Positions 3 to 28,691 are shown, counted from the stretch's first letter. The stretch: DNA of 64,000 nucleotides from Endomicrobiia bacterium (GCA_039630545.1 JBCNUU010000002.1:1-64000); one strand, 5' to 3'. Program-made: numbers and translations. The notes: generated by a model from the letters alone, not told the origin.

Positions 3-1067
3 AACTATGTTATTACTTTAGATGAGTTGCCTGATTTAGAAGAATATCCCTATACAGAATCTACAACTACCTTTAAATATTATACTCTTAATATAATAAT
101 CAACCCTTCACAAGCAGGAACCGTAACAAGAACTCCGAACAAGACAGTGTTTTTAGAGAACTCAACTGTTACTCTTCAAGCAGTTGCTTTAAGTGGGTAT
201 ATTTTTTCAAACTGGGTTGTTGGCAGTAGTGTTTATACAACAAATCCTATTGTAATAACCATTACTACCAACACAACAGTGACTGCTAACTTTGTTAATA
301 TAACCACTACTCAGACATATATTCTTAATTTAGATATTTATCCTCAAGCAGCAGGGGTGATTTACTATAATCCAACTGGTGGTGTATACATTGCAGGCAC
401 AACTGTAACACTTACAGCGCAGGCAAACAGTGGTTATGTATTTAGTCACTGGAGTGGAGATGTAGGAGGCAGTCAGAATCCTGTAAGTATATTAATGGAT
501 GCAAACAAGACAGTTGTTGCGCATTTTAGTGTGAGTGTATCAACAGATAGTAAGCCTTTTATTGGTAGTATTAATTTATCAACAGGACAGATAGTATCTG
601 GTTTATATAATTTAGTTATTAGTTGTAGTGATGATATAGGGGTATCTAGAGTTGAGGTGTATATAGATGGTAGTTTAGTAGCAACTTTGACATCATCACC
701 TTATAGTTACACAATAGACACGAATAACTTATCTGATGGTAGTCACAATTTATTAGTAGTTGTTTACGACACATCAAATCAGACGCAGACAACAAGTATA
801 AACTTTACAGTGGATAATTCTGGTTCTTTAGATACTTTATTAAAAGATAATTATTTACTGACAGTTAATTCAGATGACAAAAATGAAGTAATAGATTTTG
901 GAGATGATATTGAATGGATAAAAATATATGGAATAAATGGAAAAGTAATTTACGAGTCTTCAGGTGATGTAAATCCAGCATTTACTTCTAAACCCGGCCT
1001 TTATATCTACAAAGCTAAACTTAAAAATGGGAAAATTTTTACAGGAAAAATTCTCGTTTTAAGATAA
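3..1067 (+). CDS. 5'-truncated secreted protein: two InlB-B/Flg_new-like repeats, one Ig-like (Big_7-type) domain and a T9SS-like C-terminal sorting domain
   Basis: Frame is open from position 3 (NYVITLDEL...), so the TTG at 27 is not the real start. Repeats 'TVTLQAVALSGYIFSNW' and 'TVTLTAQANSGYVFSHWSGD'; Ig 'SDDIGVSRVEVYIDG...SPY'; C-terminal 'LTVNSDDKNEVIDF...KPGLYIYK...TGKILVLR'. Confidence 0.8.
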   Translation, partial: NYVITLDELPDLEEYPYTESTTTFKYYTLNIIINPSQAGTVTRTPNKTVFLENSTVTLQAVALSGYIFSNWVVGSSVYTTNPIVITITTNTTVTANFVNITTTQTYILNLDIYPQAAGVIYYNPTGGVYIAGTTVTLTAQANSGYVFSHWSGDVGGSQNPVSILMDANKTVVAHFSVSVSTDSKPFIGSINLSTGQIVSGLYNLVISCSDDIGVSRVEVYIDGSLVATLTSSPYSYTIDTNNLSDGSHNLLVVVYDTSNQTQTTSINFTVDNSGSLDTLLKDNYLLTVNSDDKNEVIDFGDDIEWIKIYGINGKVIYESSGDVNPAFTSKPGLYIYKAKLKNGKIFTGKILVLR

Positions 1068-1125
1068 AAATTATACCTGATAAAATGTTCTTTTAATAAC
1101 ATAAAAACCTTAATTTTACATATTA

Positions 1126-1154
1126 TTGACATAAATGTAATATTTTTGTAAATT
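1126..1154 (+). promoter_or_regulatory. Putative sigma70 promoter for the PilZ gene
   Basis: TTGACA(1126-1131)-N17-TAAATT(1149-1154); G-rich RBS-like GGGGG just upstream of ATG 1194. Confidence 0.55.
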
Positions 1155-1193
1155 TTAATATGTATATCTTAACTCCGGGGGAAAATAAAATAA

Positions 1194-1519
1194 ATGGAAA
1201 GAAGAAAAGCAATAAGGGCCCCAATAAATATGATGTTAGATGTATATAAAAATGGCAAATTAGAAAATTCCTGGCGAGGTTGTGGTTTAGATTTGAGCTT
1301 AAAAGGTATCGCTATTGAAACAGAAGGAGAATTTGAAAAGAATGATGATATTTTAATAAAAATCAGCATTCCTATAGATGTTCAAGGAAAAATAGTCTGG
1401 GTTAAAAAAGAAGGTCAGCTTATAAATACGGAATAAAGTTTTCAAAAATTGGTTTTTTTGAAAAAATGCAGGTTAAGAAATATATTAAAGCAAGACTTCT
1501 TGGAAAATCTTCACAATAA
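1194..1519 (+). pseudogene. PilZ-domain (c-di-GMP-binding) protein with a 1-nt frameshift near 1420
   Basis: RxxxR (RKAIR) and DxSxxG (DLSLKG) motifs in ORF 1194-1436. Another frame from 1421 reads YKYGIKFSKIGFFEKMQVKKYIKARLLGKSSQ* (stop 1517-1519), which fits the last strand and helix of PilZ. Confidence 0.8.
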
Positions 1520-1541
1520 GTTGATTTTTTAATTATTCTCT

Positions 1542-1570
1542 TTGACTAAATATATCTTACATTTTAAAAT
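1542..1570 (+). promoter_or_regulatory. Putative sigma70 promoter for the GH9-AKR unit
   Basis: TTGACT(1542-1547)-N17-TAAAAT(1565-1570). Confidence 0.6.
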
Positions 1571-1674
1571 TTGAAATCCAGAAATGTTTCTATGGGGATA
1601 AAAAATATTATTTTAGTTTAAATACAACAAGTTAATACTTGTATAAATTATAAAATAATCCAAAAAGTAAAAAT

Positions 1675-4647
1675 ATGAAACACACAAAAAATAAAAAGCT
1701 ATACTTAAAAAAATTTTTAATATATTTATTATTTCAATTCTTCATATTTGTAAAATTTCTTTTTTCTCCACCAATCCCTGGTGCACCTCTTATTCGTCTA
1801 AACCAGGCTGGTTATTCAACTGATGACAACTACAAAACAGCAGTGGTATCTGGACTTTCTGGGACTTTCAGTGTTCATAGGTACAATACAGACGAAATGG
1901 TTTTCTCTGGAAACTTAAGTGCTTTAGGCACAGACAGTGTAACTTCTGAGATCTTATATCTTGCTGACTTTTCTGCAGTTAATACTCCTGGAGTTTACTA
2001 TCTCAAAGTTGGTTCTGAAGTTTCACCAAAGTTTGAAATAAGAGATGACCTATATAACAAGGTATTGTACTACACACTGAGAGTTTATGGAGCAAACAGG
2101 TGCGGTCCTTACCATTCCTGGATTCATAAACCCTGTCACACGAAAGATGGTATGATTCGTGGAAGTGGTAAAGAAGGCTCTCTTGCAGGAGGCTGGCATG
2201 ACTGTGGTGACCATGTAAAATTTGGACACACAGTTTTTTATGCTGCTTGTATGCTTTTGTTTGCATATAACAACTGGCCCAATAGATTTGGTGATGTTTA
2301 TGGGATGGAGTACAACGGTACTTACTATAACCCCAACCCTGATGGTATACCTGATGTATTAAATGAAGTTAAAGTTGTAACTGATTATTTATTAAATTTG
2401 TATAACGCTTCAGTTGAAGACGGTTTAATTTCACAAAACAGATTATACTATCAAGTGGGTGACGGAGACGATGATCATACCTGGTGGCACAAACCAGAAA
2501 ACCAGGATAACTTTCCTCAATCTCGTGGAGGTCAACCCAGGGAAGCATGGAGTGATATAGGTGCTGACTTAGCAGGAAGATTTTCTGCTTGTTTAGCAAT
2601 GATGGCTACAGCATACTATAAATTTGATATTGAATATGCCAATAAGTGTCTTGATGCTGCTAAGGTTGTTTATCAAATAGCCAAAAATGTATATGGACAG
2701 ACAGGGAAAAATACAGGTGGAAAAGGTTACTATAGCCCAGATAACCGTGCAGATGACGATATGGCTTTAGCTGCTTTAGAACTCTATAAGGCTACAGGAG
2801 ATTCATTTTATCTTAGAGAAACACAATACTGGATGTATAAAGAGCAAAAATGGCAGTTTTGTTCTTATTATGTTTTGAGTTTTCCTAATGTATTTGCGTT
2901 GGTGTTATACGATTACTACCCGTATGCTTCACCAGTAGATAATGCTCCAGGGGAAATAGACACAAAAGTTGTCACAAAAGATGAGTGTATTGAATGGTTA
3001 GAGAGAGATGTTTTACAGTCGGCACCTGCTGCAGATATATATGGGAGAAAATGGGACTATGGTTGGGGAACTTGTAGATATATGATGGGTGTTGCAGCAA
3101 CAGCAGTTATGGCTTATGACTTATCTTTGAAAAAAGGAACTCCTAACTCTCAGATGTTAAAAATAGCAAAAGACCAGATGAACTGGGTTTTTGGCAGAAA
3201 CCAGTTTGGAATGAGCTTCATTGTAGGAAACAAACAGGACGGATGGCTTACAAGATATCCACAACATCCACACCACAGAGCAGCAAATCCTGACGGAGAA
3301 AATGTCCCGGAACTGCCAACCTACCAGGCTACTGAGCTTACAGGCGCAACTATTGGAGGACCAAAATCCCACACTGACTTTTCAGACAGGTGGAACGACT
3401 ATGTAGCTACCGAGACAGGTGTAGACTACTGGGCAGGAACTCTTGTTACTGTTGCGTACTTTGCAAAACCGGTTTCTACTATAACAGATACTAAACCCAC
3501 TTTAAGTTTTGTTAATCTTCAAAACGGAACCACAGTTCAAGGAAATGTTACTGTTCAAATACAAGCCTCAGATGACAGGGGAGTTTCAAAAATAGAACTT
3601 TATATTTCTAACAATAAAGTTTATGAAGCAATAAATAGTAACTCACTTGTTTATCTCTGGAATACAACTTTATACTCAAACGGAGTTTATCAAATAAAAG
3701 CAACAGCTTATGATACCATAAACCAGTCCTCAGAAAAAACAATTTCAGTTTATGTTCTAAACGGCTTCACCACTCCACCAGATGGAGGTGGAAGTGGAGG
3801 CGGAGGAGGACAACCTCAAGATACACCTCCTTTAGTTATTTTTCAAAACTTAACAAATGGCACTACAGTTTCTGGAAGTATAGAAATAAATGTTTATGTT
3901 TCTGACGATAAAGGAATTACAAATGTACTTTTTTATATAAACAATAATTTAATAGCTACTTATTCTGGAAGTTTTAACTATATTTTTTATTCCACAGGAT
4001 ATCCAAACGGTACACATTATTTAAAAGTTGTAGCTATTGACACACTTCAACAATCTACTACTCAGCAGCTATCAATTTATATAAATAATGTTCCAAATGA
4101 TTTACCACCAACAGTGACAATTTTAACACCACAAAACAACCAGATAATTTCTGGCACTTTTCAGATTACTGCTTCAGCCACAGATGACCATTTAATTAAA
4201 AAAATAGAACTTTACATTAATAACCAGCTGGTTTATACAACAAATTCGGGTTATATCAATTACGATTGGAACACTACTATTTACTTAAACGACACATATT
4301 TTATTAAAGTAGTTGCCTATGACAACAATAACCAAACAGGATACAAACAAATTCAAGTGAGGGTATACAATGATACTTCTCAAAATAATAACCAGCAAGA
4401 AAATTCAGATATAATCAATAAAAATCACTACTTATTAAATTACAACCAACCTGTAGATTTTTCAAAAATAACAAATGATATATTAAAAGTAGAAATATTT
4501 GATGGTAAAGGAAAAGTTATAAAAGCTATTGAAAGCCCTCCGTTTTTATTGAGTTTAGATGATAAATTAAAAATAGGTTTTTATTTATATAAAATAACAA
4601 CAAAAAACAATCAAAAATTCTTTGGCACAATAAAAGTAATTAAATGA
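1675..4647 (+). CDS. GH9 endoglucanase: N-terminal Ig (CelD_N-like), GH9, three Ig-like domains and a C-terminal sorting domain
   Basis: Signal peptide; 'IRLNQAGY'; GH9 motifs 'GGWHDCGDHVKF', 'HPHHRAA' and 'DRWNDYVATETGVDYWA'; three 'ASDD.G..K.E.Y' Ig repeats; C-terminal 'KIGFYLYK...FGTIKVIK'. Confidence 0.92.
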   Translation: MKHTKNKKLYLKKFLIYLLFQFFIFVKFLFSPPIPGAPLIRLNQAGYSTDDNYKTAVVSGLSGTFSVHRYNTDEMVFSGNLSALGTDSVTSEILYLADFSAVNTPGVYYLKVGSEVSPKFEIRDDLYNKVLYYTLRVYGANRCGPYHSWIHKPCHTKDGMIRGSGKEGSLAGGWHDCGDHVKFGHTVFYAACMLLFAYNNWPNRFGDVYGMEYNGTYYNPNPDGIPDVLNEVKVVTDYLLNLYNASVEDGLISQNRLYYQVGDGDDDHTWWHKPENQDNFPQSRGGQPREAWSDIGADLAGRFSACLAMMATAYYKFDIEYANKCLDAAKVVYQIAKNVYGQTGKNTGGKGYYSPDNRADDDMALAALELYKATGDSFYLRETQYWMYKEQKWQFCSYYVLSFPNVFALVLYDYYPYASPVDNAPGEIDTKVVTKDECIEWLERDVLQSAPAADIYGRKWDYGWGTCRYMMGVAATAVMAYDLSLKKGTPNSQMLKIAKDQMNWVFGRNQFGMSFIVGNKQDGWLTRYPQHPHHRAANPDGENVPELPTYQATELTGATIGGPKSHTDFSDRWNDYVATETGVDYWAGTLVTVAYFAKPVSTITDTKPTLSFVNLQNGTTVQGNVTVQIQASDDRGVSKIELYISNNKVYEAINSNSLVYLWNTTLYSNGVYQIKATAYDTINQSSEKTISVYVLNGFTTPPDGGGSGGGGGQPQDTPPLVIFQNLTNGTTVSGSIEINVYVSDDKGITNVLFYINNNLIATYSGSFNYIFYSTGYPNGTHYLKVVAIDTLQQSTTQQLSIYINNVPNDLPPTVTILTPQNNQIISGTFQITASATDDHLIKKIELYINNQLVYTTNSGYINYDWNTTIYLNDTYFIKVVAYDNNNQTGYKQIQVRVYNDTSQNNNQQENSDIINKNHYLLNYNQPVDFSKITNDILKVEIFDGKGKVIKAIESPPFLLSLDDKLKIGFYLYKITTKNNQKFFGTIKVIK

Positions 4648-5597
4648 AATACCGCATATTAGGCAAAACTAACCTGAAAGTTTCCGAGATATGTTATGGA
4701 ACTGCTTTCTGGGGAGGAAGAACAACATATACTCAAGCAAAAGAAATATTTTATTTTTGTATAGATAAAGGAATAAACTTTTTTGACACAGCAGAAGTTT
4801 ATGGAAGCAGGTGGGGCGAAGCAGAAGAGATTCTTGGAGATTTTTTAAAAGAGTCAAAAAAAAGAAAAGACCTGGTTATTTCTACAAAAGTTCATGGATA
4901 TCGTGATGGCAGATACCAAACTAAAAAAGAAATTTTAGAAAGTATAGAAAATTCCCTTAAACGCCTCAAGACCGACTATGTAGATATTTATTTTCTTCAC
5001 TGGCCTGATCCTTTTACTCCAATTGAAGAAGTTTTAGAAACAATGGATAAAGTTGTTAAATCGGGAAAGGCACGCTTTATAGGGATGTCCAATTATATGT
5101 CCTGGGAAGTTTTTCAAGCAATAGAACTATCAAAAAATAAAGGTCTTACTCAACCATATGTTTTACAGGAAATATTTAATATAGTTGACTTTGATGTAAA
5201 CTTTGAAAAATACGAACTTGCAAAAAAGCTAAACCTGGGATATATGGCGTACAGCCCCTTAGCATCTGGATTTCTTACAGGTAAATATAAAAAGGATTTC
5301 ATCCCACCTGATACAAGGGGCTTTATAAAACCTGACTGGGAAGAAAAAAGATGGAAGTGGAGATTTTCTGAATATGGATGGAAAGTACTTCAGGAAGTTG
5401 AAATTTTAGCAAAAAATTATTCCTGTAGTGTTTCGCAGTTATCTTTAGCATTAGTTTTATGTTTTGATACTGTAAGCTGTGTGATAGATGGTTCAAGAAC
5501 AGTAGAACAACTTAAAGAAAACATAAAATGCATTGATCTAAAAATAGATAAAAACGATTTTGAAAAAATTAAAGATTTAAGTTATTTTTTGTTTTAA
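4644..5597 (+). CDS. Aldo/keto reductase
   Basis: 'MKYRILGKTNLKVSEI', 'FFDTAEVYG', 'ISTKV', 'SLKRLKTDYVDIYFLHWPD', 'YSPLASGFLTGKY'; D/Y/K/H tetrad present; ATGA overlap with the GH9 stop. Confidence 0.93.
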   Translation: MKYRILGKTNLKVSEICYGTAFWGGRTTYTQAKEIFYFCIDKGINFFDTAEVYGSRWGEAEEILGDFLKESKKRKDLVISTKVHGYRDGRYQTKKEILESIENSLKRLKTDYVDIYFLHWPDPFTPIEEVLETMDKVVKSGKARFIGMSNYMSWEVFQAIELSKNKGLTQPYVLQEIFNIVDFDVNFEKYELAKKLNLGYMAYSPLASGFLTGKYKKDFIPPDTRGFIKPDWEEKRWKWRFSEYGWKVLQEVEILAKNYSCSVSQLSLALVLCFDTVSCVIDGSRTVEQLKENIKCIDLKIDKNDFEKIKDLSYFLF

Positions 5598-5734
5598 TTT
5601 TTTAAATTACATTATTCTCCAAATTAAACCATTCAATGTATAAAACATCAAATAAATTAGCATTAAAGTTTACCTGCCTTTTAATAACCCTTTAATATAA
5701 TAAATGATCTTTTTTCACCAGGGGGTAAAATTAT

Positions 5735-6557: not shown

Positions 6558-9500
6558 ATGAAGTTAATATTACTTACTTTTTTAGTGTATGTTTTGTCTT
6601 TACTTCCTCTTTCAGCACAAACTTTTTATTTTTATCTTCCCTGGGATGATTCTTCATCTAATGTTTGTGATATAAGTTGGTTAAACCACAAGCCAGCAGG
6701 AAAGTATGGTTTTGTTTCTGCAGGGACAGATGGACATTTTTATGCAGGCAGTCAACGAATAAAGTTTTTAGGTGTAAACTTTACATCAGATGCTTGTTTT
6801 CCTTTGAAGACACAGGCAGAGCAGGTTGCAAAACGGCTTGCCAAGTTTGGAATAAACATTGCAAGGTTGCATTTTTTAGACAACCCCTGGGGATATTCTA
6901 TCTTTGGTTATGCAGGAACCTACACAACCACAAGAAGTTTTAATCAAGAAGCTTTGGATCGTCTTGATTATTTTATTTCAAAACTTAAAGAAAACGGCAT
7001 ATATGTTAATATAAATTTAGTTGTAGGTCGCAATTTTATGCCTGGTGATGGGCTTCCTTCTTCTATCAACCAGCTTGATTGGAAACAGAAACAAGTGCCT
7101 GCTATGTTTTATGAGCCGATGATAGATCTTCAAAAAGAATATGCTTATAATCTACTTACAAGATTAAACCCTTATACAAGTACATATTATAACAATGAAC
7201 CTGCGGTTGCTATGGTTGAGATAATAAACGAACACGGTTTAATTCAAGGTTGGTTAGATAGGACTATAGATATTTTACCTCAAGAGTTTTCAGAGAATTT
7301 AAGGCAGAAGTGGAACAACTGGCTTGTAAATAAATATCAGACACATTCAAATTTGGTTTCTTCTGGTTGGGCTTTATCTGAACCATTAGGTCAAGAAATG
7401 CTAAAGAACGCTGATTTTTCGCAAGGTTTTACATACTGGAACAGAGAGCAACAAAGTGTTGCAAGGGCATCTTTTACTATAGTAAATGAAGGTCCTAATG
7501 GAGAAAGAGCTGTCAAGATAAAAATAGAAAACACCTCATCTACATCCTGGCATGTTCAGTTTAACCAGCCAGGTTTGGTTGTTTTTTCAACTCGTCCGTA
7601 TACCTTGAGTTTTTATGCTAAAGCAGATAGAAACACTTCAATCAATGTCCAAATAGGACAAGCACATGAGCCATGGCAGATTTTAGGGTTTGACAGGGTA
7701 ATAAATCTTACTACATACTATCAACTTTTTACATTTGAACTTACAGTGTCTAGTGGTGATACAAACGCGAGGGTAAATTTTTCAAATATGTGTAAAGAGT
7801 TAGCTACATATTGGTTAAGTAACATATCATTTAGGCCTGGTGGAAATGTAGGTCTACTTGCTGGTGAGAATCTGGATAATGGGACCGTGGGTATAATAAA
7901 GTATCAAGAAAGGAATCTAAGGACACAGAAAGCTCAAAGGGACTGGATTGAGTTTTTGCATCAACTTGAAGAAAACTTCTGGCTTACGATGTATGACTAT
8001 TTAAAGAATACTGTTGGTATAAAATGTGCAATTACTGGGACCACGGTTGGTCTTACATCTGTGCCAAATATAATGTCAAAGCTTGATTTCGTGGATACTC
8101 ATTCTTACTGGCATCACCCGGTGTTTCCTGGAACTGCCTGGAATATGAATAACTGGTATGTAACAAACGCAACTTTGGTGAAAGATCTTGACGGTGGAAC
8201 CATATCTGAGATGGCTATGAGGAGAGTTTATGGTAAACCTTTTACTGTGACTGAGTATAACCATCCTGCACCAAACACATTTTCTGCTGAATGTTTTATA
8301 TTTTTAGCTGCATATGCTGCTTTTCATGATTGGGATGGAATTTTTGGTTATACTTATTCACATAGCACAAGCTTTGATACTAAAAGAATTACAGGATTCT
8401 TTGATTTACACCAGCATCCGGTTCAGTTTGCTTCTTTTATACCGGCAGCTCTTATATATAGGAGGGGAGACATTTCTTCATCTAATGGAAATTATGTAGT
8501 TGTAAATGTCACAAAGCAGGATGAGATAAACCAAGCTTTAACCACCTGGGCTTGGAGATTAATCCATGCAAATGATTTAGGTCTTAATAGAAGAACTGCT
8601 ATGTTGTATAAAACAGCTATGATAGTTGAAGGAGGTCCTCAACCCCAAAATTATCTTACACCGTCTCAGGTTCAGCTGCCTACTAACAACTACTATGTCT
8701 CAGATACTAACGAGTTAAAGTGGGACACCTCTAATGGTGTATTTATAGGTGATGCTTCAAAGGTTAAGTTTTTAGTTGGGTATTTACAAAACCAGGAATA
8801 TACATTGTCTGATAACATAGTAATAAGGAATGTTAATTCTATTCAAAACAAATGGGCTGTTATCACTTTAAATTCCATAGATGGAAAAACATTTTCTGAA
8901 CTAAATTCAACTACAACAACAGGACAAATTTTAATAACAGCATTAGGTGCTTGTGGAAATCCTGGCATGAACTGGATGGTATATCCTAACACTCCTATAT
9001 CTTTTCCTCCACCTGTAAACCAGAATATCACAGTTGGCAACCAGTGGGGTGGTTCTACTTCGTTTGTTGAGGGTATAAGCTGTGACATAGTTTTACCATA
9101 TTTAGCTTCAAGAGTAAAAGTATATGCATTAGACAACACAGGTGCAAGAAAGACAGTCGTGCCCATAACTGTAGAAAACAACAAAGCAAAGTTTACAATT
9201 TCGCATATTTATCAAACTTTATGGTATGAAGTTGAAGTTTCTACAACAGAAACAACACAAATCGTAGACAATCCTCCAAACCTGACAATTGTTTCTCCTG
9301 GAGATAATTCTATAGTTTTTTCAACAGTGGCTATAAGAGCATCTGCTTCTGACGATTTTGGTGTGTCAAAAGTGGAGTTTTATATAGACAACTTACTTGT
9401 TTATACGGACAACCTTTCTCCTTATGAGTTTATTTGGCATACTACTTCTACAACCAACGGTTTACATTATATAAAAGCAATAGCTTATGATACGCTTAAT

Positions 9501-15016: not shown

Positions 15017-15031
15017 AAAGGAGTTTTAAAG

Positions 15032-20162: not shown

Positions 20163-22511
20163 ATGAATATAATAATTTTTGTTTTAAGTCTATTTTTAAT
20201 CAGGAATATAGAAGCTTCTTTTCTTAAAGTGATAGGAAACAAACTTTATGATGAAAACGGCAATGAGGTCCGCCTTACTGGAGTAAACTGGTTCGGCTTT
20301 GAAACTGGCAATTATGTGCCACATGGTTTATGGAGCAGAGATTATAAATCTATGATAATGCAAATTAGAGATTTAGGATTTAATTGCATTAGAATTCCAT
20401 GGTGTAATGAAATGTTAAGAAAAACAACTCCCCGTGGTCTTGAAATCAATCCATACGGCAATGACGCTTACGCTGTTCAAAAGGGAATAAAACTATATCC
20501 ACAAGCTCCTGAAGGTTACACTGGAATTAATCTTGATTTAGATGGACTTACACCTTTGCAGATTTTAGACAAGATAATAGAAGAAGCAGGAAAATATGGT
20601 TTAAAAATCATTTTAGACAACCACTCAAGAAAAGCCGATGGATATATGAACGAAACACTCTGGTATACTCAAGATTTTTCCGAACAACAATGGATAGAGG
20701 ATTGGGTATTTTTAGCACAAAGATACAAAGGCAACCCCACAGTAATTGGAGCAGATTTAGATAATGAACCACACGGAAACACAGGTATGGGCATGAAACC
20801 ACCAGCAAGCTGGGGATATGAACTTCCTCAATATTATACTGCCTGGGCGCAAACTACAGACTGGGCAGCTGCAGCTGAAAGATGTGGAAATGCAATTTTG
20901 GAGGTTAACCCTGACTGGTTAATAATCGTAGAAGGAGTAGAACAGTACCAAAATGATTACTACTGGTGGGGTGGAAATTTAATGGGCGTTGCTAAAAGAC
21001 CTATTAATCTTATAAAGCCAGAAAAGCTTGTTTATTCACCTCACGAATATGGTCCGGAAGTTTACAATCAAAGCTGGTTTAGTGATCCTAACTTTCCAAA
21101 TAACATGCCAGAGATTTGGTATAAGCATTTTGGTTTCATATATGACCAGAATATAGGACATCTTTTAGTAGGAGAATTTGGCATTAAAAATCAATCCAAC
21201 ACAACCGCATATACCTGGTTTACAGAGTTTATGAAATACATGGGAAGTAAATATTCCTGGACATTCTGGTGTTTTAATCCAAACTCCGGAGATACTGGTG
21301 GAATCCTGCAGGACGATTGGGTTTCAGTTCACGAATGGAAGATGGAGGTGTTACGGCCTCATTTAGCGCCACTTATTACCTCATCTACCTCCTATCAACC
21401 AAAAGATAACCCTCCGGTTGTGAATATCCAAACACCTTCAAATAATTCTACGGTATCTGGAAAAATAGAAATACTAGTTGTTGCTTCCGATGATAAAGGA
21501 ATTTCTAAATTAGAACTTTACATAGATCAACAAAAATTAACAGAAACTTCTACCTCCACTATAAGATATACTTTAAATACCACACTTTACACAAATGGTG
21601 TATATACAATCAAAGCAATAGCATATGATACTACAAATAAGAGTTCACAAAAACAAATCACAATTAATATAAATAATAAAACCTCTCAGTTTCTAACTTA
21701 CATAAATATTGTTTTTCCTTTAAACAATCAGGTCCTTTCCGGACAAACCACAGTTTATATTCAGGCTTCCAGTGATGTCTATAAAGTTGAACTTTATTTA
21801 AATGATTCATTAGTAAGTTCAAAACAACACTCTCCTTACGAATTTTTATTAAACACATATGATTATTCTAACGCAACTTACACTCTTAAAGCTGTAGGAG
21901 TTTCTTTTTCTACCGTAGTTATTTCAGAAATATCAATAACCATAAATAATGTTCATGGAGACGAACTACCTACCTTATATATAGAACTTTCCACAAGTTC
22001 ATTTTCAAATATTATGAATTTTAAAATCTCAGCATCAGATGATAACAAGCTTACCAGAATAGAAATTTATATTTCAGAAATTCTGGTAAGTAGTATAGTA
22101 GTAAATTCTTATGCTTTCGAAGTTGATTATCAGATAGACATATCGAATTTTTCTTCAGGAGAGTATATCTTGCAAATAATAGCTTATGATGATAAAGGTC
22201 AAACTTCATCATTTGTGTCTAATGTAGAAATTTATAACCAAACCGATTCTTCTTCTAACCAAAATGAAGGATTTAAAAAAGTGTATTTACTTTCTTTAAA
22301 TTCGGATGGCATAAATGAAAAAATTGTATTTCCTCTCTCTGGTGTTAAAATTTTTTCTTCAAATGGGACATTAATAAAAAAATTAGACTCTTTAGAATGG
22401 AACGGAAAAGATGAAAATGGCAGGTTAGTCTCTTCAGGAGTTTATTTTTACATCCATGATTCTGTAAAAAATAAAGGAAAAAATAAAGGTGTTATCTTCG
22501 TAATAAAATAA
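20163..22511 (+). CDS. GH5 subfamily 1 endoglucanase with three Ig-like domains and a C-terminal sorting domain
   Basis: 'RLTGVNWFGFET..VPHGLWSRDY', 'DLDNEPH', 'YSPHEYGP', 'LVGEFG', 'WTFWCFNPNSGDTGGILQDDW'; CTD 'LSLNSDGINEKIVF..WNGKDENG..SGVYFY..GVIFVIK'. Confidence 0.93.
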   Translation: MNIIIFVLSLFLIRNIEASFLKVIGNKLYDENGNEVRLTGVNWFGFETGNYVPHGLWSRDYKSMIMQIRDLGFNCIRIPWCNEMLRKTTPRGLEINPYGNDAYAVQKGIKLYPQAPEGYTGINLDLDGLTPLQILDKIIEEAGKYGLKIILDNHSRKADGYMNETLWYTQDFSEQQWIEDWVFLAQRYKGNPTVIGADLDNEPHGNTGMGMKPPASWGYELPQYYTAWAQTTDWAAAAERCGNAILEVNPDWLIIVEGVEQYQNDYYWWGGNLMGVAKRPINLIKPEKLVYSPHEYGPEVYNQSWFSDPNFPNNMPEIWYKHFGFIYDQNIGHLLVGEFGIKNQSNTTAYTWFTEFMKYMGSKYSWTFWCFNPNSGDTGGILQDDWVSVHEWKMEVLRPHLAPLITSSTSYQPKDNPPVVNIQTPSNNSTVSGKIEILVVASDDKGISKLELYIDQQKLTETSTSTIRYTLNTTLYTNGVYTIKAIAYDTTNKSSQKQITININNKTSQFLTYINIVFPLNNQVLSGQTTVYIQASSDVYKVELYLNDSLVSSKQHSPYEFLLNTYDYSNATYTLKAVGVSFSTVVISEISITINNVHGDELPTLYIELSTSSFSNIMNFKISASDDNKLTRIEIYISEILVSSIVVNSYAFEVDYQIDISNFSSGEYILQIIAYDDKGQTSSFVSNVEIYNQTDSSSNQNEGFKKVYLLSLNSDGINEKIVFPLSGVKIFSSNGTLIKKLDSLEWNGKDENGRLVSSGVYFYIHDSVKNKGKNKGVIFVIK

Positions 22512-22563: not shown

Positions 22564-22592
22564 TTGATATTTTTGTTAAAAATATGTATATA
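22564..22592 (+). promoter_or_regulatory. Putative sigma70 promoter giving a near-leaderless transcript
   Basis: TTGATA(22564-22569)-N17-TATATA(22587-22592), ending 8 nt before ATG 22601; no SD. Confidence 0.45.
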
Positions 22593-22600
22593 TATAGCGT

Positions 22601-25600
22601 ATGAAATATATAAGCAGAATAATTATAACATGTATTTTCCTGTGCGAATTTTATCTTTATTCTGCTCCTGCTGGGATAGTGCTTTATGGCGACAACCAGG
22701 GTTTAAAATACAGAATTTATGATACTGAAACCAAAATGGGAAGTGAACAACAGGTTCCAGGAATCACCACACAAATAAACTTCATAAGAGCAGCAGCCTG
22801 CCCTACAAGACCTGAGATAATAGTGTTAGCTTTAGACAACTCTGGCACTCTTTATTGTTCTACCTGGACATCTACTGGTGGCTGGGCTGAGTCCCCACGA
22901 ATTATTCGTTCAGGAGGAGACACCACCAACAGATGGTTTGATGTTGTCTATACAAAAAACGGTCATGCAATGATTGTATATTCAGATGGAACTACTGCTT
23001 TGAAATACACAATCTGGAATGGTTTGTGGTGGGAAAATGTAAGAGATGTTGGAAACTTACATGATGGAAAACTTCCTTGCTGGGTTACACTTGCAGCCTG
23101 CCCTACAAGAGAAGAAGTTATAATGGTATACCAAAACAAAGACAACAGAAGAGCATACGCAAGTGTCTGGATTTCAAGCGGTCCTACTCGTGGGTTTGTG
23201 TCTGACTTTAACATACAAGTCACAGCAGGTGGAGTTTCAAACAGTGATGCTAGGGAAGGTGTTACTGTGACATATGAAAGTATTTCTGGTGAAGGCATAA
23301 TTATATTTAACGCTTCTGGTATTAATGCAAGAGTATGGAATGGAAGCAGCTGGTCTGCTCCTATAACTGGAGGAGGTTCGGGTCCAAATAATATATCTGC
23401 AAAACCGAAACCTTCAGGAGATGAAATATTAGTTTGTTACAACATTCAATCTTCAGGAGACACACGATTTAGAATCTGGAATGGTAACAACAACAGCTGG
23501 GATACAGAACAAACAATGAATCCTAATCGTGGTTCTGCTGGGTATTATCAGATAGATGGCGACTGGGAACTTACTTCAGGACATGAAAGTCACTATCTTG
23601 TAGTAAGCTGGATTCAATCCGGCGGCAGCTATCTTCATGCCGGACTTTTAGCAAAAAGATGGACCGGAAGTAATTTTATAGAGCTTTATCCTGTTTCTGG
23701 AACTTCAGGGATTACATACAACAGTGTATATCTTAAAACTCTCACTCGCATTCAAGGCACCGCTTCTCCTACTATTCAAGTATTAGCCAATACTGCTGGC
23801 ACTTTAAATGCGTGGGATTTTGATTGTTATAATCATCAATTTGATTATAAACAAGAATTAGAAACATCTCTTTCCAGAACAACAAATCCTCATCAGAGTT
23901 TTGTTATGGTTGCATTCTACAATTACACACCACCTGACACAACACCACCTGCAGCAATTAATGACCTTCAAGCACAACCAGGTTTAAATCCTGGAGAGAT
24001 AGTTTTAAGCTGGTCAGCTACAGGAGATGATGGTAACAGTGGTACTATTACAGGAGGGCAGTATAGGTTAAGATATTCCACATATGTGACTTCTGACCCA
24101 AATTTCTGGACATCAGGTTCATGGACAGATCCGCAAAATAAATATGAATTGTTATGGTCAACAAATACCACACCATTTGAGCCACAAAAAATTACTTTGC
24201 AGAATTTAACAGAAGGAGTTATTTATTACTTTAGAATATGGCTAAAAGATGACTCAAACAACTGGTCCCAAATATCAAATCAAGCTTCATCTTACCCCAA
24301 AGCTACACCCGACACAACACCTCCAGCAAAAGTCCAGAATATAACACTAAATCCTGGACCTGGAGGTTGTGAGATCACAGTAGTATGGCAAGCCACAGGT
24401 GATGATGGTTCATCTAATAATATTACAGCTGGAAAATATAGAATAAGATATGCTACACACACTCAGGTTGATTGGTTTTCTTCTTCTGGATGGGATAGTC
24501 CTTCTACAAAATATCAAATAGAAACCACAACCAACATTATTGCTGGCACATATCAAACTAATATTCTTTCAAATCTTTTAGAAGGTGTAACTTATTACAT
24601 AAGAATATGGTTAAGAGATGAAAACGAAGAAAACTGGTCAGAACCTTCGGATATCTTTTCAGGTTATTCTAAATCAGAACCACCTGCGTCAATAACAGAC
24701 CTTAAAGCAGAAGGATATTTCTTTGGTATAAAAGAAGGCGAAATAAAACTTAGCTGGACAGCAGTTGGAGACAATGCATATAGTGGTGTTGCTAAGGAAT
24801 ATATAATAAGAGTTTCTACTATCTCAAACATAAACAACGATACAGAATTTGAAAATGCAAAACCGCTTTTTGAATTTTCTTCAGTTTCTATACCACAACC
24901 TGCATCACCAGGTACCATCCAAACATTGATAGTTTCTGGTTTGATTCCGGGTGTTACCTATTATTTTGCCATAAAAGTAAAAGATAATGTTGGCCTTTTA
25001 AGCGGCTGGAGCAGGGATTTTATAGTTAACACAAATAATTATGCCATGGCATTTGACGAAATACCTCCTAAAGTCTCAAATCTCACTATTACAGAATTAG
25101 ACAAACAACTAAATCTGCAATGGAGTTATAATTTTTCTAATGTTAAAGATTTTTCCCATTTTGTTATTCACTGTGATAGCACTTCATCCACTCTGTGGGA
25201 TGATAGTTTCATAATAACCCAAACTACAAATACATTTTGTATTCTCACAGGTTTAGAAAATAACATACTTTATACATTTAAAATACTCGCAGTAGACTTA
25301 GGTCCCAATGTCTTAGAAAGCGAACCTGAGTTTATTTCTGGTACTCCAAAAATTTCAAAACCATTAAAACCACAAAATTTTGTAGGAGTAGCTATTTCAA
25401 CAACCTCTATTTTATGGAGTTGGAAGTATACTTCTACAAATGTAAATATGTTTTCTATATATGACGCTAAAGGTAATTTACTTTATCAGATGCCTCTTGA
25501 ACCTCCAGTTGGTCCAGAAGGAGAATTTTTAGAAGAAAATCTAACCCCTAATACTTCTTCCCAGGTAAGTTATATTATTGTAAGCAACCAAATGGGAAAT

Positions 25601-27265
25601 AGTGATCCCTGTTATGCTCAAACTAAAGTATTTACTTTTTCTAATCCACCTTCAGAAATAACTCTGGTAAGTGTTTCTTCAGTAAATTATAGATTAAGTT
25701 TTTCATCTAATAATAATCCACTATATACAAGATACGCAGTATATATCTCTACCGATGATGTAAATTATAACAAAATAAAAGACATTGAAGACAATTTTAC
25801 AATTAATCGGCTTCCTTTAAGTTTAATTTTACAACAAGACAGTGCATATTTCTTTAAATTCTGGTCATATAACCAGGATGGTATTCCTTCTAAAGAAGTA
25901 AAATTTTCTACAAGGACATATGATGAAATTCCACCTGCTAAAATTATTGATTTAACAGTAATACTCTCTCAAGTTCCAGGAAAAGTAGATTTAAGATGGA
26001 CCTCTCCTGGAGACAATGGTAATAGTAAAACCTTTTATGGACAATTTGAAATTCGCTGGACAGATAATCCTTTGTATACCTGGGATTTAATACCACAAAG
26101 TAACCACATTGTAATTTCTACAACCGCTTCTCCAGGTGAAATTCAAAGTATTTCTATTTCTGGTTTACCTTATAACACAACAGTATATTTTATGATCAGG
26201 TCCATAGATGACTATGGAAATCCTTCTGAAATTTCTTCTAAAGTCTCTATATATATTCCTAAACCCACAAAGGTTCCATATTTTGTTGCCGGTCTAAAAT
26301 TAAAACAAAAAACACAAAATTCATTAACTCTTAGTTGGTCAAAAGTTACAAGAAATCAGGATGGAACTATTTCGGATGATGTTTGTTTTTATCATATTTA
26401 CAAAAGCACTTTATCTTTAGATAATTTAACATTTTTAGCTAAAACTAGTTCGGATGTTTTAGAATTTACTGACTTTTCTTACGATCCAGGTAGAGTCTCT
26501 TACTACGCAGTAAAAGCTGTTAATTCTTTAAACGTAGAAAGTATAATAAAAATGTATTTAAATTCTAATGGTGATGTAATATTTATTTCTGACGATAAAG
26601 AAGTTAAAGTGGATATTCCATATAAAGCTTCATCTTTTCTGTATAGACAAACAAACAATTTTTCAGAAGACTTGATAGTAAATATAAATAAATTAAATAT
26701 AGGTGGATATATTTCTTCTTATGATATCTCTTTTTATGGATACGAAACTTCTTTAAAATATTATCAAAAATTTGAAAAAGGTGAATTTTCAATAAGCTTT
26801 TCAGTTAAAAATTACTCTCTGGATGAGATTCAAGTATATTACTGGTTAAATGACAAAGACACCATTCGCATTTCAGATGTAGAACTGATTAGACCATATA
26901 ATATGATCAAAATTAACACCATATATTCAGGATTATTTTCTTTAAAGCGAGAAAAATTATTAAGCACAGAAATCAAAATAGAATCTATAAGACCTAAAAT
27001 AATCACTCCAACATCTCAGGATACAAACTACAGCAAATCAACAATTTATATTAATAATATGCAGAAACAACAGGTATTATATACTAAAATTTATGATTTA
27101 AAAGGTAACTTAATCACTGATAAATTAATAGAAGAAAAAAAAGATTTTATTTATAGCTGGGACGGTAAAACCAACAATGGCGAGATAGTTCCAGCTGGTC
27201 CGTATATTTATGAAATAAAAGTAGGAAACAAAATTTTAAGGGGAATAATTATAGTGGCAAGATAA
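22601..27265 (+). CDS. Large surface protein: beta-propeller-like N-terminus, multiple Fn3 repeats and a FlgD-Ig/gliding-type C-terminal sorting domain
   Basis: 'WNGSSW'/'WNGNNNSW' blade-like repeats; Fn3 units 'DTTPPAAINDL..LSWSATGDDG..YRLRYST..GVIYYFRIW'; C-terminal 'IRPKIITP..IYDLKG..WDGKTNNGEIVPAGPYIYEI..GIIIVAR'. Confidence 0.8.
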   Translation: MKYISRIIITCIFLCEFYLYSAPAGIVLYGDNQGLKYRIYDTETKMGSEQQVPGITTQINFIRAAACPTRPEIIVLALDNSGTLYCSTWTSTGGWAESPRIIRSGGDTTNRWFDVVYTKNGHAMIVYSDGTTALKYTIWNGLWWENVRDVGNLHDGKLPCWVTLAACPTREEVIMVYQNKDNRRAYASVWISSGPTRGFVSDFNIQVTAGGVSNSDAREGVTVTYESISGEGIIIFNASGINARVWNGSSWSAPITGGGSGPNNISAKPKPSGDEILVCYNIQSSGDTRFRIWNGNNNSWDTEQTMNPNRGSAGYYQIDGDWELTSGHESHYLVVSWIQSGGSYLHAGLLAKRWTGSNFIELYPVSGTSGITYNSVYLKTLTRIQGTASPTIQVLANTAGTLNAWDFDCYNHQFDYKQELETSLSRTTNPHQSFVMVAFYNYTPPDTTPPAAINDLQAQPGLNPGEIVLSWSATGDDGNSGTITGGQYRLRYSTYVTSDPNFWTSGSWTDPQNKYELLWSTNTTPFEPQKITLQNLTEGVIYYFRIWLKDDSNNWSQISNQASSYPKATPDTTPPAKVQNITLNPGPGGCEITVVWQATGDDGSSNNITAGKYRIRYATHTQVDWFSSSGWDSPSTKYQIETTTNIIAGTYQTNILSNLLEGVTYYIRIWLRDENEENWSEPSDIFSGYSKSEPPASITDLKAEGYFFGIKEGEIKLSWTAVGDNAYSGVAKEYIIRVSTISNINNDTEFENAKPLFEFSSVSIPQPASPGTIQTLIVSGLIPGVTYYFAIKVKDNVGLLSGWSRDFIVNTNNYAMAFDEIPPKVSNLTITELDKQLNLQWSYNFSNVKDFSHFVIHCDSTSSTLWDDSFIITQTTNTFCILTGLENNILYTFKILAVDLGPNVLESEPEFISGTPKISKPLKPQNFVGVAISTTSILWSWKYTSTNVNMFSIYDAKGNLLYQMPLEPPVGPEGEFLEENLTPNTSSQVSYIIVSNQMGNSDPCYAQTKVFTFSNPPSEITLVSVSSVNYRLSFSSNNNPLYTRYAVYISTDDVNYNKIKDIEDNFTINRLPLSLILQQDSAYFFKFWSYNQDGIPSKEVKFSTRTYDEIPPAKIIDLTVILSQVPGKVDLRWTSPGDNGNSKTFYGQFEIRWTDNPLYTWDLIPQSNHIVISTTASPGEIQSISISGLPYNTTVYFMIRSIDDYGNPSEISSKVSIYIPKPTKVPYFVAGLKLKQKTQNSLTLSWSKVTRNQDGTISDDVCFYHIYKSTLSLDNLTFLAKTSSDVLEFTDFSYDPGRVSYYAVKAVNSLNVESIIKMYLNSNGDVIFISDDKEVKVDIPYKASSFLYRQTNNFSEDLIVNINKLNIGGYISSYDISFYGYETSLKYYQKFEKGEFSISFSVKNYSLDEIQVYYWLNDKDTIRISDVELIRPYNMIKINTIYSGLFSLKREKLLSTEIKIESIRPKIITPTSQDTNYSKSTIYINNMQKQQVLYTKIYDLKGNLITDKLIEEKKDFIYSWDGKTNNGEIVPAGPYIYEIKVGNKILRGIIIVAR

Positions 27266-27266
27266 T

Positions 27267-28691
27267 ATGAAATTAATGAATAAACCAGATTATTTTAAAT
27301 TTATTTTTGTCATTTTCTTTGCAAGTAATCTTTATTCTTTAAATGAATTCACAGGACACTCTGCTAGAACAAAAGCAATGGGAGAAGCCGTATGTGGTGT
27401 AGCTGACAGTGTGGAAAGTATATATTATAACCCTGCTGGACTTCATACTGTTTTAGCACCACAGGTTTCTTTAGGTTATCAGATTTTATGGATGCTTTTA
27501 ACCGAAGAAGATAGTTTAGGTAATGGATATGTAAACGTATCTTTTCCTTTTAAAAAAGTGGGGAGTTTTTGTTTAGGTTATTCAAATTTTAATATCTCAA
27601 ATTTATATCAAGAACATGTAGGAATTTTTACATATTCCAATAAACTATTTGATTCTTTTTATGGAGGTTTTAATGCAAAATATTTAAGTGTAGTTTACAC
27701 TATTAAAGACGAGATAGTAAATAACTCTTACTTTAGCACTTATGGAAATCAAACCTCTAATTTCAGTTTTGATATAGGATTTTTATACAAAAAAGAAAAA
27801 TTTTCTATAGGTACATCTTTTCAAAATCTCAACCAACCAAAACTGACCCTTAATCCTGAAGAAAAAGATTTTTTAAAAATAAAAGTAAATACTGGAATAG
27901 GGGTACGTCCTAGCAAAACGTTTATAATAGGTTTAGACATAAGTTTTGATACTACATTAAAACTAGCTTTTGGATTAGAAAAACTTCTAATTAACGAAGG
28001 CGTCAGCATAAGGGCTGGAGGAAATTATAATCTAAAAGGAACAGGTGAAACTTCTTTGGGTTTTGGATATAGAATTCCTATTTCCTTTGGTGGGATAGTT
28101 TTAAATTATAGTTTTAGTTATCCTTTAACTTCAATAACCAACACTGCAGGACACCATTTTGTTTCTTTTCTAATAGATTTTGATAAAACTTCCATTAAAG
28201 AAATTTCTGATATAGAGAAGAAAAAAATTGCAAAATATGATGAAAAACAATTGAAAGAAGAAATTATTAAATCACTTAAGCCCCAACCCATAACTCTTGA
28301 TATTTCAAAAGAAATCTTAAAAAAAGAAGACAGAGAAATTATATTTAAAATAAAAATTTCTACTGAAATAGAATTGACAGGTTGGCAACTAGTAATTACC
28401 GACGACAGAAAAAAAGTAGTAAAAAAATTCTATTCTAATAAACTCCAAGAAGAAATCCCATGGGATCTCAAGACAGACGAGGGGAAGTATATCTTACCAG
28501 GAAAATATAGTTGTTTTGTAATTGGAATTGATAATAAAGAAAATAAAGTTGAATCCCAAATAAAGACATTTATTCTGTCTGAAAAACTTCAGATAGAATC
28601 ACCCCAACAAGAAACAATAATGTGTCCCAATTGTGGAGCTGAAAATATAAAAGGAGAAAGGTTCTGTGTAAGATGTAGAGAACCTTTATAA
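27267..28691 (+). CDS. PorP/SprF- or PorV-like beta-barrel with a FlgD-Ig-like domain and a C-terminal zinc ribbon
   Basis: 'SARTKAMGEA..SIYYNPAGL', 'NLNQPK', 'SIRAG', 'YSFSYPL..AGHHFVSF'; then 'PWDLKTDEGK..PGKY' and 'CPNCG..FCVRC'. Confidence 0.75.
   Translation: MKLMNKPDYFKFIFVIFFASNLYSLNEFTGHSARTKAMGEAVCGVADSVESIYYNPAGLHTVLAPQVSLGYQILWMLLTEEDSLGNGYVNVSFPFKKVGSFCLGYSNFNISNLYQEHVGIFTYSNKLFDSFYGGFNAKYLSVVYTIKDEIVNNSYFSTYGNQTSNFSFDIGFLYKKEKFSIGTSFQNLNQPKLTLNPEEKDFLKIKVNTGIGVRPSKTFIIGLDISFDTTLKLAFGLEKLLINEGVSIRAGGNYNLKGTGETSLGFGYRIPISFGGIVLNYSFSYPLTSITNTAGHHFVSFLIDFDKTSIKEISDIEKKKIAKYDEKQLKEEIIKSLKPQPITLDISKEILKKEDREIIFKIKISTEIELTGWQLVITDDRKKVVKKFYSNKLQEEIPWDLKTDEGKYILPGKYSCFVIGIDNKENKVESQIKTFILSEKLQIESPQQETIMCPNCGAENIKGERFCVRCREPL

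Follow-up and report, generated by a model that had tools for sequence, protein, structure and literature searches.

A cellulase locus with predicted type IX-like sorting in a probably thermophilic Elusimicrobiota bacterium

What are six glycoside hydrolase (GH) genes of cellulolytic families doing side by side in a diderm member of the Elusimicrobiota, a phylum known for sugar-fermenting ultramicrobacteria and for endosymbionts of termite-gut protists, and how would their products reach the substrate? The locus that raises this question lies at positions 3 to 28,691 of a 64,000-nucleotide stretch of DNA from Endomicrobiia bacterium (GCA_039630545.1, JBCNUU010000002.1:1-64000). This stretch, called the window below, is the first 64 kb of the 254-kb contig C12. 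In the best explanation, to which we give a probability of roughly 0.6, the host is a streamlined, probably thermophilic Elusimicrobiota bacterium of 1.6 Mb that lives on cellulose and has at least four cellulase loci, this one being the chief. Best supported in this explanation are the predicted set of cellulolytic genes and its confinement to one genus. Export that would depend on a C-terminal sorting domain (CTD) and use a native SprA-like route is reasonably supported, and we infer a stable tethering of the enzymes on carrier barrels.

Every gene between 3 and 31055 is found on the plus strand. The predicted products are given below (aa, amino acids; CBM, carbohydrate-binding module; Ig, immunoglobulin; ECF, extracytoplasmic function; all matches from Pfam unless noted).

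3 to 1067, plus strand: 3' part of a cargo gene, cut at the contig end; two Flg_new_2, one Big_7 and a CTD (Pfam, CTD alignment)
1675 to 4647, plus strand: GH9 endoglucanase; signal peptide, CelD_N Ig-like domain, GH9 (279.5 bits), three Big_7, CTD
4644 to 5597, plus strand: aldo/keto reductase (222.5 bits); 4-nt overlap of its start with the GH9 stop
6558 to 10622, plus strand: predicted GH5-like clan GH-A enzyme, 1354 aa; nested CBM_4_9, three Big_7, Flg_new_2, CHU_C/CTD
11075 to 15016, plus strand: GH8 glucanase; PF01270 (211.7 bits), seven Big_7, CHU_C/CTD
15032 to 17149, plus strand: divergent GH44; signal peptide, CIA30/CBM11-like module, PF12891; no Ig repeat or CTD
17262 to 19163, plus strand: GH48 exoglucanase; signal peptide and catalytic domain only, PF02011 (662.3 bits)
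19160 to 20134, plus strand: 324-aa outer-membrane barrel of the PorV/PorQ/PorP kind; no Pfam match, assigned with hhalign; 4-nt overlap of its start with the GH48 stop
20163 to 22511, plus strand: GH5 endoglucanase; PF00150 (156.7 bits), two Big_7, CHU_C/CTD
22601 to 27265, plus strand: 1554-aa non-enzyme cargo; N-terminal 7/8-bladed beta-propeller, long fn3-type stalk, FlgD_ig-type tail/CTD
27267 to 28691, plus strand: 474-aa PorV/PorP-like carrier barrel; PF11751; starts 1 nt after the 1554-aa cargo gene
28769 to 29362, plus strand: ECF sigma factor
29412 to 31055, plus strand: putative anti-sigma factor; CxxC, one transmembrane helix, G/S/T/P-rich linker, C-terminal domain without family

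An earlier reading of this DNA, made from sequence only, had counted six hydrolases in about 21 kb, including an exo-acting GH48. The Pfam gene order bears this out: 1675 to 22511 encodes GH9, a GH5-like enzyme with nested CBM4, GH8, GH44, GH48 and GH5, all six with a signal peptide-like N-terminus. The PF02011 match of the GH48 covers the complete model (1-619 of 619) and the protein scores 592 bits against the CelS structure 8zu1. The nearest solved structures are of the CelS type (8zu1, 1l1y) and from Caldicellulosiruptor (6d5d, 4l0g). In both GH48 paralogues of the genome, all 97 columns with at least 97% conservation over 121 GH48s show the consensus residue. Alignment of the GH9 to Cel9M (1ia6) shows that the HDxGDH and HPHHRA motifs and the TE glutamate are retained, with 'HDCGDH' in place of 'HDAGDH' and 'TETGVDY' in place of 'TEVALDY'. 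The GH44 matches PF12891 with 70.9 bits, covering only positions 93-221 of 223 in the model. Since its match to CelJ (2e0p, residues 354-681) is only 63 bits, it is a divergent member; DNEP and LAITE(I/Y), which hold the two catalytic Glu, are retained. The catalytic motifs SEG and TDAD are found in the GH8, and NEP and GEFG in the GH5. In GH9 the catalytic residues are the two DxGD aspartates and a Glu. The predicted catalytic residues are thus kept in the five families checked, and two invariant Glu motifs are present in the GH5-like enzyme.

No whole-domain catalytic Pfam match is found for this GH5-like enzyme of 1354 aa. Only its N-terminal half matches PF00150, with 25.1 bits at a cut-off of 23.5. 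A profile of 51 family members matches the GH5 mannanases of the PDB (3pz9, E 6.3e-5) over positions 138-232, and the matched stretch ends at an NE motif. N224-E225 and E566 (in TEYNH) are invariant in 51 of 51 sequences, and the CBM4 module is inserted between the strands carrying NE (acid/base, 224-225) and E566 (nucleophile). The half match, the mannanase profile match, the invariant NE and E566 and the CBM4 lying between these motifs together point to a GH5-like clan GH-A enzyme at 6558-10622, a prediction from sequence. Among its ESM Atlas neighbours, PF00150 occurs in 14-32% of members and PF02449 in 12-16%. The family counts 666 proteins at E≤1e-10 among 8000 scored. Across Armatimonadota, Verrucomicrobiota, Goldbacteria and archaeal thermophiles (such as Ignisphaera aggregans) identity is about 40-47%, and the only annotation is 'carbohydrate binding domain-containing protein'. 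In Goldbacteria metagenome-assembled genomes (MAGs) the GH5-like+CBM4 unit is fused to CIA30. The stretch 6558-9257 and its relatives (about 900 aa, several hundred proteins) seem to form a glycosidase family with too little annotation. A connection to the archaeal cellulase EBI-244 is no more than a lead.

By the labels of its nearest relatives, the host belongs to the Elusimicrobiota, class Endomicrobiia. Its genome has 1,604,573 bp in 82 contigs with 29.4% G+C; completeness is estimated at 95.5% and contamination at 0.17%. SmpB, PyrE, HisS and a SprA-like gene are also present on C12. The best database match of the GH48 is labelled Elusimicrobiota. Among species-representative genomes, the closest GH48 loci are those of an 'Endomicrobia bacterium' (92%) and of two 'uncultured Elusimicrobia sp.' (86% and 79%), and the gene order of the window is common to these three loci, of which one belongs to an Endomicrobia-labelled and two to Elusimicrobia-labelled MAGs. 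The stretch is found in only three public DNA runs of a single hot-spring study, possibly the assembly's own source; no RNA run is among the public runs that hold it. The IVYWREL fraction, a crude amino-acid index, is 0.424, which would correspond to about 62 °C. The host is probably thermophilic.

The window is not the only place with such genes. The genome inventory comprises eight GH9 loci, two GH48, four GH5 plus the GH5-like gene, and two GH8, so that seven GH9 loci (one of them GH9-CBM3), the second GH48, three GH5 and the second GH8 lie beyond the window. A second sugar region spans 203.7-254 kb of C12. It starts with a solute-binding protein, two ABC permeases and a GH94 (203.7-210.5 kb) and also contains a GT2 and two GGDEF proteins. 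Four consecutive GH9 genes are found in it, one with CBM3 (219287-222862), one with CBM11 and one with CHU_C. Further along it carries a LacI regulator, a split GH9 with CBM11, a GH116/GH52-like gene, a second binding protein and a sugar kinase, and it ends with a transketolase, an oxidoreductase-aldo-keto-reductase fusion, a GH5, a GntR/LacI regulator, a GH48 with three Big_7 and a terminal GH5. Contig C6 encodes a GH9 with CBM9, a CBM11 protein, a GH8 with tail, four PorV-like barrels and a TolQ/ExbB-TolR/ExbD set. C1 encodes a GH5 with four Flg_new_2 repeats and a tail, C23 a GH114+GH16 protein with tail, and C77 a further GH9.

Two of these genes are interrupted. The split GH9 (C12:232936-236082) consists of a 305-aa piece with CelD_N and the GH9 start and a 709-aa piece with the rest of GH9 and CBM11. 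The second GH48 (C12:249654-252940) has 976 aa and three Big_7, and its CTD is found 35 nt downstream in a 106-aa open reading frame (ORF) of another frame. Its counterpart in the relative G165 is a single 1088-aa ORF. The split tail of the second GH48 is a frameshift or an assembly error.

No parts of a cellulosome or of a polysaccharide utilization locus (PUL) are found beside the enzymes. In a Pfam search at E≤0.001, dockerin, cohesin, SLH, CBM3 and SusC/D have no match among the 15 proteins of 1-34 kb. In the eight genomes of the genus, PF00404 (Dockerin_1) and PF00963 (Cohesin) are both found in 0 of 8 while the controls rang, and PF07980 (SusD_RagB) is likewise found in 0 of 8 with the Bacteroides thetaiotaomicron control ringing; no separate SusC search of these genomes was made. 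The absence of these modules, which the sequence-only reading had asserted, thus holds for the window; on the contig as a whole it fails for CBM3, because of the GH9-CBM3 gene at C12:219287-222862.

Are the catalytic domains of a clostridial type, as had been proposed? Outside the genus, the best matches of the GH48 are metagenome proteins of 47-50% identity, some of them with CBM3, with dockerin, or with dockerin and Por_Secre_tail. CelS of Acetivibrio straminisolvens is 44% identical, and the two paralogues of the genome share 43% with each other. In a FastTree analysis of 121 sequences both paralogues fall in a 16-row uncultured clade (SH-like support 100), apart from the 105 remaining rows, which are clostridial, actinobacterial, from Chloroflexota or of other origin; the program flags the rows of this clade for unusual composition and long branches. 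The term 'Clostridium-type' thus overstates the case: with at most 50% identity outside the genus, the GH48s form a deep uncultured clade of their own. A recent transfer from Clostridia was considered for the GH48 and is rejected by the same tree. The further claim that users of the type IX secretion system (T9SS) lack GH48 does not apply generally, since GH48 with Por_Secre_tail occurs in Persicobacter diffluens (Bacteroidota). Three more GH48 proteins carry a T9SS tail, and one GH48 record is labelled Chitinispirillia. P0147, a protein with GH48 and Big_7 that is closely related to the second paralogue, stands under the archaeal MAG label Candidatus Anstonellales, probably a binning error.

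How would such enzymes be sorted? A CTD of about 80 residues ends six of the ten secreted proteins of 3-28691, namely the partial gene product, the GH9, the GH5-like enzyme, the GH8, the GH5 and the 1554-aa protein. Its motif is '..I.IY...G.LI....W(N/D)GK..NG..V..G.Y.Y......G.I.V.K/R'. Big_7 repeats together with the CTD are found in four of the six enzymes, and GH44 and GH48 have neither, so the proposed combination of Ig stalks with T9SS-like sorting applies to those four only. The CTDs score both on the CHU_C/type B model (TIGR04131) and on the Por_Secre_tail/type A model (TIGR04183); the CBM4 enzyme reaches 23.4 bits on TIGR04183 at a cut-off of 23. CHU_C is over its cut-off at eight places of the genome, five with a single match and three after adding in-frame neighbours, and three of the eight are in the locus. 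A hidden Markov model of the window tails finds 26 of 1,821 genome ORFs at E<0.001, at least 11 of which are carbohydrate-active enzymes.

Two outer-membrane barrels are encoded next to these cargo genes. The 474-aa barrel scores 33 bits on PF11751 (PorP_SprF; cut-off 22.3) and 55 bits on NF033709 (PorV/PorQ family), below the cut-off of 90. The 324-aa barrel aligns with the genome's PorV-like barrels (hhalign probability 98.5, E 3.5e-15, 275 columns) and has a weak PorQ match in NCBIfam. A 295-aa barrel on C6 reaches 110 bits on NF033709, above the cut-off, and several PorV/PorQ-family barrels adjoin cargo genes. When the 474-aa barrel is modelled in complex with the CTD of the neighbouring 1554-aa cargo, the score is 0.84 and that of the best control 0.00, with at least 96% contact agreement between runs and a partner pLDDT of at least 82. 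This mark is reached by 116 of 157 solved complexes versus 2 of 215 mismatched pairs, counts that hold only roughly because thin alignments of our own were used. The model supports binding of the 474-aa barrel to the tail of the 1554-aa cargo. Of the GH48 species, two (G185 and G067) have a full-length orthologue of this carrier, with 71% and 45% identity; elsewhere just paralogues with about 30% identity occur. The carrier may be unassembled in the third GH48 species, because the locus contig stops there at the GH48 gene. The end of the carrier (28340-28691) consists of a K/E-rich linker, a FlgD-Ig-like domain resembling the cargo tails and a CxxC...CxxC zinc ribbon. This zinc-ribbon ending is odd for an outer-membrane protein and is kept in the G185 orthologue.

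The 1554-aa cargo is modelled with a pLDDT of 86.3 and a pTM of 0.88. With Foldseek, the top seven chains for its propeller are Photorhabdus PLL/PHL propeller lectins; in VIA-align these lectins tie with WD40 and NirF propellers. The propeller has 324 relatives, and 0 of 20 scanned carry a Pfam family for the domain. The protein is a candidate substrate-binding adhesin.

Two ways of holding the GH48 on the cell were considered. A lipoprotein anchor is rejected, as the cysteine of the signal peptide, in 'LIFC', is unconserved in three orthologues. Tethering by the coupled 324-aa barrel is countered by one species in which no barrel lies between GH48 and GH5.

For the passage across the outer membrane, a SprA-like ORF of 1733 aa is found 11 kb past the window (C12:74846-80047), with just 15 bits on PF14349. 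SprA-like ORFs of about 1,750-1,900 aa are present in 353 of 401 phylum genomes and in 281 of the 293 good ones, none above the cut-off. Of the 121 genomes of the class, 79 have the CTD, and among the 67 good ones 56 do. As the SprA-like protein is phylum-wide and the CTD class-wide, the export route is native and did not arrive with the cellulases. By its predicted parts, the route is not the canonical T9SS. Of its parts, the CTD, the barrels and a compact SprA-like protein below the family cut-off are found, and GldKLMN and the catalytic part of PorU have no match in the searches given below.

The cellulases are distributed quite differently. GH48 is found in 4 of the 401 phylum genomes, which are four of the eight species of the genus, and elsewhere in 0 of 393. 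GH9 is found in 10 of 401, five of them in the genus (5 of 8). GH94 is present in 6 of 10 family genomes (five above the cut-off), all in the genus. The CTD is present in 13-24 copies in the four GH48 species versus 7-11 in the other four. In G+C content at third codon positions (GC3), 683 long ORFs of the genome average 0.189 (sd 0.029). The six GH genes of the window range from 0.227 to 0.254, which puts them at the 91st-98th percentile. Typical values are found for the carrier (0.175) and for the SprA-like and GH94 genes (0.184 each). The genus-restricted hydrolases, the CTD counts, the carrier orthologues and the GC3 values fit acquired catalytic genes on native tails. The locus is undergoing remodelling within the genus. 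In related species a 1464-aa GH9 with two CBM3, three fn3, a PKD, Big_7 and a tail replaces the 990-aa GH9 positionally. GH9 genes with two CBM3 are located as follows.

G165, contig C9 (locus L034), 12714 to 17108
G057, contig C43 (locus L037), 60 to 3857

From these parts the following route can be proposed. Sec would take the enzymes across the inner membrane. The CTD-bearing ones would cross the outer membrane via the compact SprA-like pore of the lineage and, because no PorU-type sortase is detectable, would probably stay on the PorV/PorP-like barrels encoded alongside. The Big_7 Ig repeats would act as spacers keeping the catalytic domains off the cell, and the propeller-fn3 giant on its own carrier barrel would probably bind the cell to the substrate. 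The endo-acting GH9, GH5, GH8 and GH44 and the exo-acting GH48 would yield cellodextrins, which the ABC system would import and the GH94, a predicted cellobiose/cellodextrin phosphorylase, would split. In evolutionary terms, the CTD, the pore and the barrels would be native to the class, and the catalytic domains would have been gained in one genus and given native Ig-plus-CTD tails. The surface display on a diderm that had been suggested is in keeping with a CTD route in place of dockerin/cohesin or SusC/D, but it gives no ground for placing the GH48, which has no sorting domain, on the surface. A bolder claim, for which we would put the odds somewhat under even, is that one thermophilic genus of 1.2-1.9 Mb is a primary degrader of crystalline cellulose with a third architecture beside the cellulosome and the PUL: a full GH48/GH9/GH5/GH8/GH44 set, gained from beyond the phylum, on a native motor-less SprA-type route, with the enzymes on Ig stalks carried by one barrel per cargo neighbourhood, and a propeller-fn3 adhesin.

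Several observations weigh against the proposal of a cellulose-living host with tethered enzymes. Xyloglucan or mixed-linkage glucans are further substrates of GH8, GH44, GH5 and a possible GH74. The key exo-enzyme GH48, and also GH44, have no CTD and no Ig stalk. The SprA-like protein reaches 79 bits (E 1.3e-22) on TIGR04189 (SprA/Sov) at a cut-off of 200. In this 95.5%-complete genome GldK (TIGR03525) has no match at E≤0.01, and neither have GldL, GldM and GldN (TIGR03513, TIGR03517, TIGR03523), negatives that are weak because the 14 control genomes were silent too and none rang. For PorU (NF033707), 19 of 19 matches lie in model positions 876-1095, which is the PorU tail, and the peptidase part is uncovered; the best score is 61.8 bits versus a cut-off of 420. 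Both barrels of the window fall below curated NCBIfam cut-offs, and the 324-aa barrel is absent from the locus in one related species. The alignments of the complex model had only 4 and 3 rows, and its pass may reflect likeness to solved PorV-cargo complexes only. The rise in GC3 is small, and expression level could account for it. Finally, the host was named from the NCBI titles of related MAGs rather than from a marker tree.

Three other explanations have to be weighed against a surface-bound cellulolytic system. The enzymes might be exported by the CTD route and then released, free or vesicle-borne, with the barrels as transient shuttles. Canonical T9SS frees many of its cargoes upon CTD removal, GH48 and GH44 have no tether of any kind, and the 324-aa barrel is dispensable in one species. 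However, no PorU-type sortase domain that would remove the CTD is found, the confident model of barrel with CTD and the occurrence of one barrel gene in each cargo neighbourhood agree with stable carriage, and long Ig stalks of up to seven Big_7 are most sensible on tethered enzymes. We consider release unlikely, at odds of about one in five. Less probable still is that the enzymes are aimed chiefly at beta-glucans in soluble or amorphous form and at hemicellulose (xyloglucan, mixed-linkage glucan, glucomannan), in a scavenger beside true degraders. Such activities are found in characterised members of GH44, GH8, GH5 and the family of a possible GH74-like neighbour, the nearest solved relatives of the GH5-like enzyme are mannanases, and the window is without CBM2 or CBM3. 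Elusimicrobia were moreover found together with a Goldbacteria degrader on 15 of 19 particles in the portion of the study used here (Doud 2020, PMC7031533). Set against this are two GH48s with conserved residues intact, a GH9-CBM3 and eight GH9 loci, a combination that is the hallmark of crystalline-cellulose degraders, and the presence of GH94 with a dedicated importer.

Could the locus simply be foreign to the genome, a binning or assembly artefact that joins in DNA of a cellulolytic organism? The assembly is fragmented into 82 contigs, GC3 is raised in the GH genes of the window, and mis-binning does happen, as the related GH48-cluster member under an archaeal MAG label illustrates. Yet the locus is contiguous with housekeeping genes and a phylum-typical SprA-like gene on a 254-kb contig, the contamination estimate is 0.17%, three further genomes of the genus, each of another species, have the same locus, and the CTDs and barrels are of the class-native type. 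This explanation is already largely refuted and we regard it as highly improbable.

The system has partial counterparts elsewhere. It resembles the T9SS cellulases of Bacteroidota (Cytophaga hutchinsonii, 'Candidatus Paraporphyromonas polyenzymogenes') in the diderm host, in multi-modular GH5 and GH9 enzymes with a CTD, in the lack of a cellulosome and of a classical PUL and in the use of GH94 for the products. Bacteroidota genomes with T9SS cellulases carry a full T9SS. Unlike in the Bacteroidota, two GH48s are found here, in another phylum, with GldKLMN and PorU undetected, a compact SprA-like pore and the carrier beside the cargo. As far as the parts of the paper drawn on here go, Bacteroidetes genomes with T9SS cellulases have no GH6 or GH48 and 'no known exocellulases' (Naas 2018, PMC5831590).

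With clostridial systems (Acetivibrio thermocellus CelS/Cel48S, Caldicellulosiruptor CelA) the locus and its genome share the family palette, GH48 with GH9-CBM3, and GH9 with CelD_N. In contrast to them, dockerin and cohesin are found in 0 of 8 genomes, attachment would be through Big_7 and CTD, and the host is a diderm. Compared with Acetivibrio CelS, the GH48s are at most 44% identical and in a separate clade. The giant CTD protein followed by its own PorP/SprF-family barrel may be compared to SprB-SprF of Flavobacterium johnsoniae, a type B CTD cargo with its cognate barrel; the barrels here score best on the PorV/PorQ model, the CTDs score as types A and B, and the carrier adds an Ig-like domain and a zinc ribbon.

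A further counterpart is 'Candidatus Cellulosimonas argentiregionis' (Goldbacteria), also an uncultured hot-spring diderm, of a neighbouring phylum, with GH5, GH8, GH9 and GH44. In the available portion of its description it is a cellulose binder with about 30% GC, 2.74 Mb and many CBM11 (Doud 2020, PMC7031533). It differs in that GH48 is unmentioned in that portion and in a genome nearly double in size. From the same excerpts, an Elusimicrobia population (1.53 Mb, 32% GC, 80% complete) was about 500-fold enriched on labelled hot-spring cellulose particles, and Elusimicrobia were the most enriched taxon on such particles under anoxic conditions (Doud 2020, PMC7031533). They were co-sorted with the Goldbacteria cellulose degrader on 15 of 19 particles, and the authors' reading there is that this population may bind rather than degrade cellulose and that Elusimicrobia 'largely lacked' cellulases (Doud 2020, PMC7031533). 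That the lineage is not known as cellulolytic, as the sequence-only reading supposed, agrees with this wording and with GH48 in only 4 of 401 genomes. In the literature searched, with the supplements (Doud 2020 Fig. 5, tables) outside its scope, no cellulolytic Elusimicrobiota and no such locus are described. The cellulase load on the CTD/SprA-like route of Elusimicrobiota is the new part.

A free-living cellulolytic Elusimicrobiota bacterium, if true, would bring one more phylum into the small circle of those with anaerobic cellulose degraders. With a 1.6 Mb genome it would have one of the most compact cellulolytic gene sets and would help to define the minimal needs. The motor-less SprA/PorV/CTD system would gain a concrete physiological job with an assayable cargo. 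The enzymes are probably thermostable and hence of practical interest, because of the hot-spring relatives and the predicted optimum near 60 °C. An exo-acting GH48 would be paired with type-IX-style display, the exo-enzyme being said to be missing in Bacteroidetes in the excerpted text (Naas 2018, PMC5831590). The enrichment of Elusimicrobia by about 500-fold on cellulose, as given in the part of the report cited here, would get a different reading if the organisms are related (Doud 2020, PMC7031533). Likewise, the third architecture, if true, would explain the enrichment on hot-spring cellulose particles described in those same passages, although no cellulases were seen there in the 80%-complete Elusimicrobia assembly (Doud 2020, PMC7031533).

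The remaining genes of the locus concern its edges and possible regulation. The N-terminal, possibly catalytic, part of the gene at 3-1067 is missing from the assembly. Its product is 43% identical over 341 residues to the tail of an 811-aa Sortilin-Vps10/BNR propeller protein in G165, which occupies the same relative position. The ECF sigma factor and the putative anti-sigma factor are candidate regulators of the locus, and the pair adjoins the locus in G185 too. The C-terminal 130 residues or so of the putative anti-sigma factor (29412-31055) have no family and may sense polysaccharide for the locus. Aldo-keto reductases directly adjoin cellulase genes at two loci and have no obvious role in cellulose use. 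The orthologue of the one at 4644-5597 adjoins the CBM4 enzyme gene in G185, and at C12:245243-247246, just upstream of a GH5, an aldo-keto reductase is fused to a GFO/IDH/MocA oxidoreductase.

Over the whole window, Rfam gives zero matches and scans for promoters and terminators give no excess over shuffles. G+C is 0.31-0.35 in 1-32 kb versus 0.23-0.27 in 32-64 kb. In the latter part, a Bat-like operon (DUF58, BatA+VWA, DUF4159, GATase1-like) is found within 35075-53063, upstream of three paralogous TMEM260-like/TPR proteins (40799-47017). Farther 3' of this trio are genes for an MGDG-synthase-like glycosyltransferase, for a DUF4175 protein of 1097 aa and for a Peptidase_MA/TPR protein. The 170-aa protein at 54296-54808 is scarcely more than a signal peptide and a T9SS-type tail. 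TPR proteins and a 1603-aa protein without family also occur within 54296-63117, and at 56392-58287 a 631-aa protein has the FliG middle and C-terminal domains fused to TPR (TIGR00207, 129 bits).

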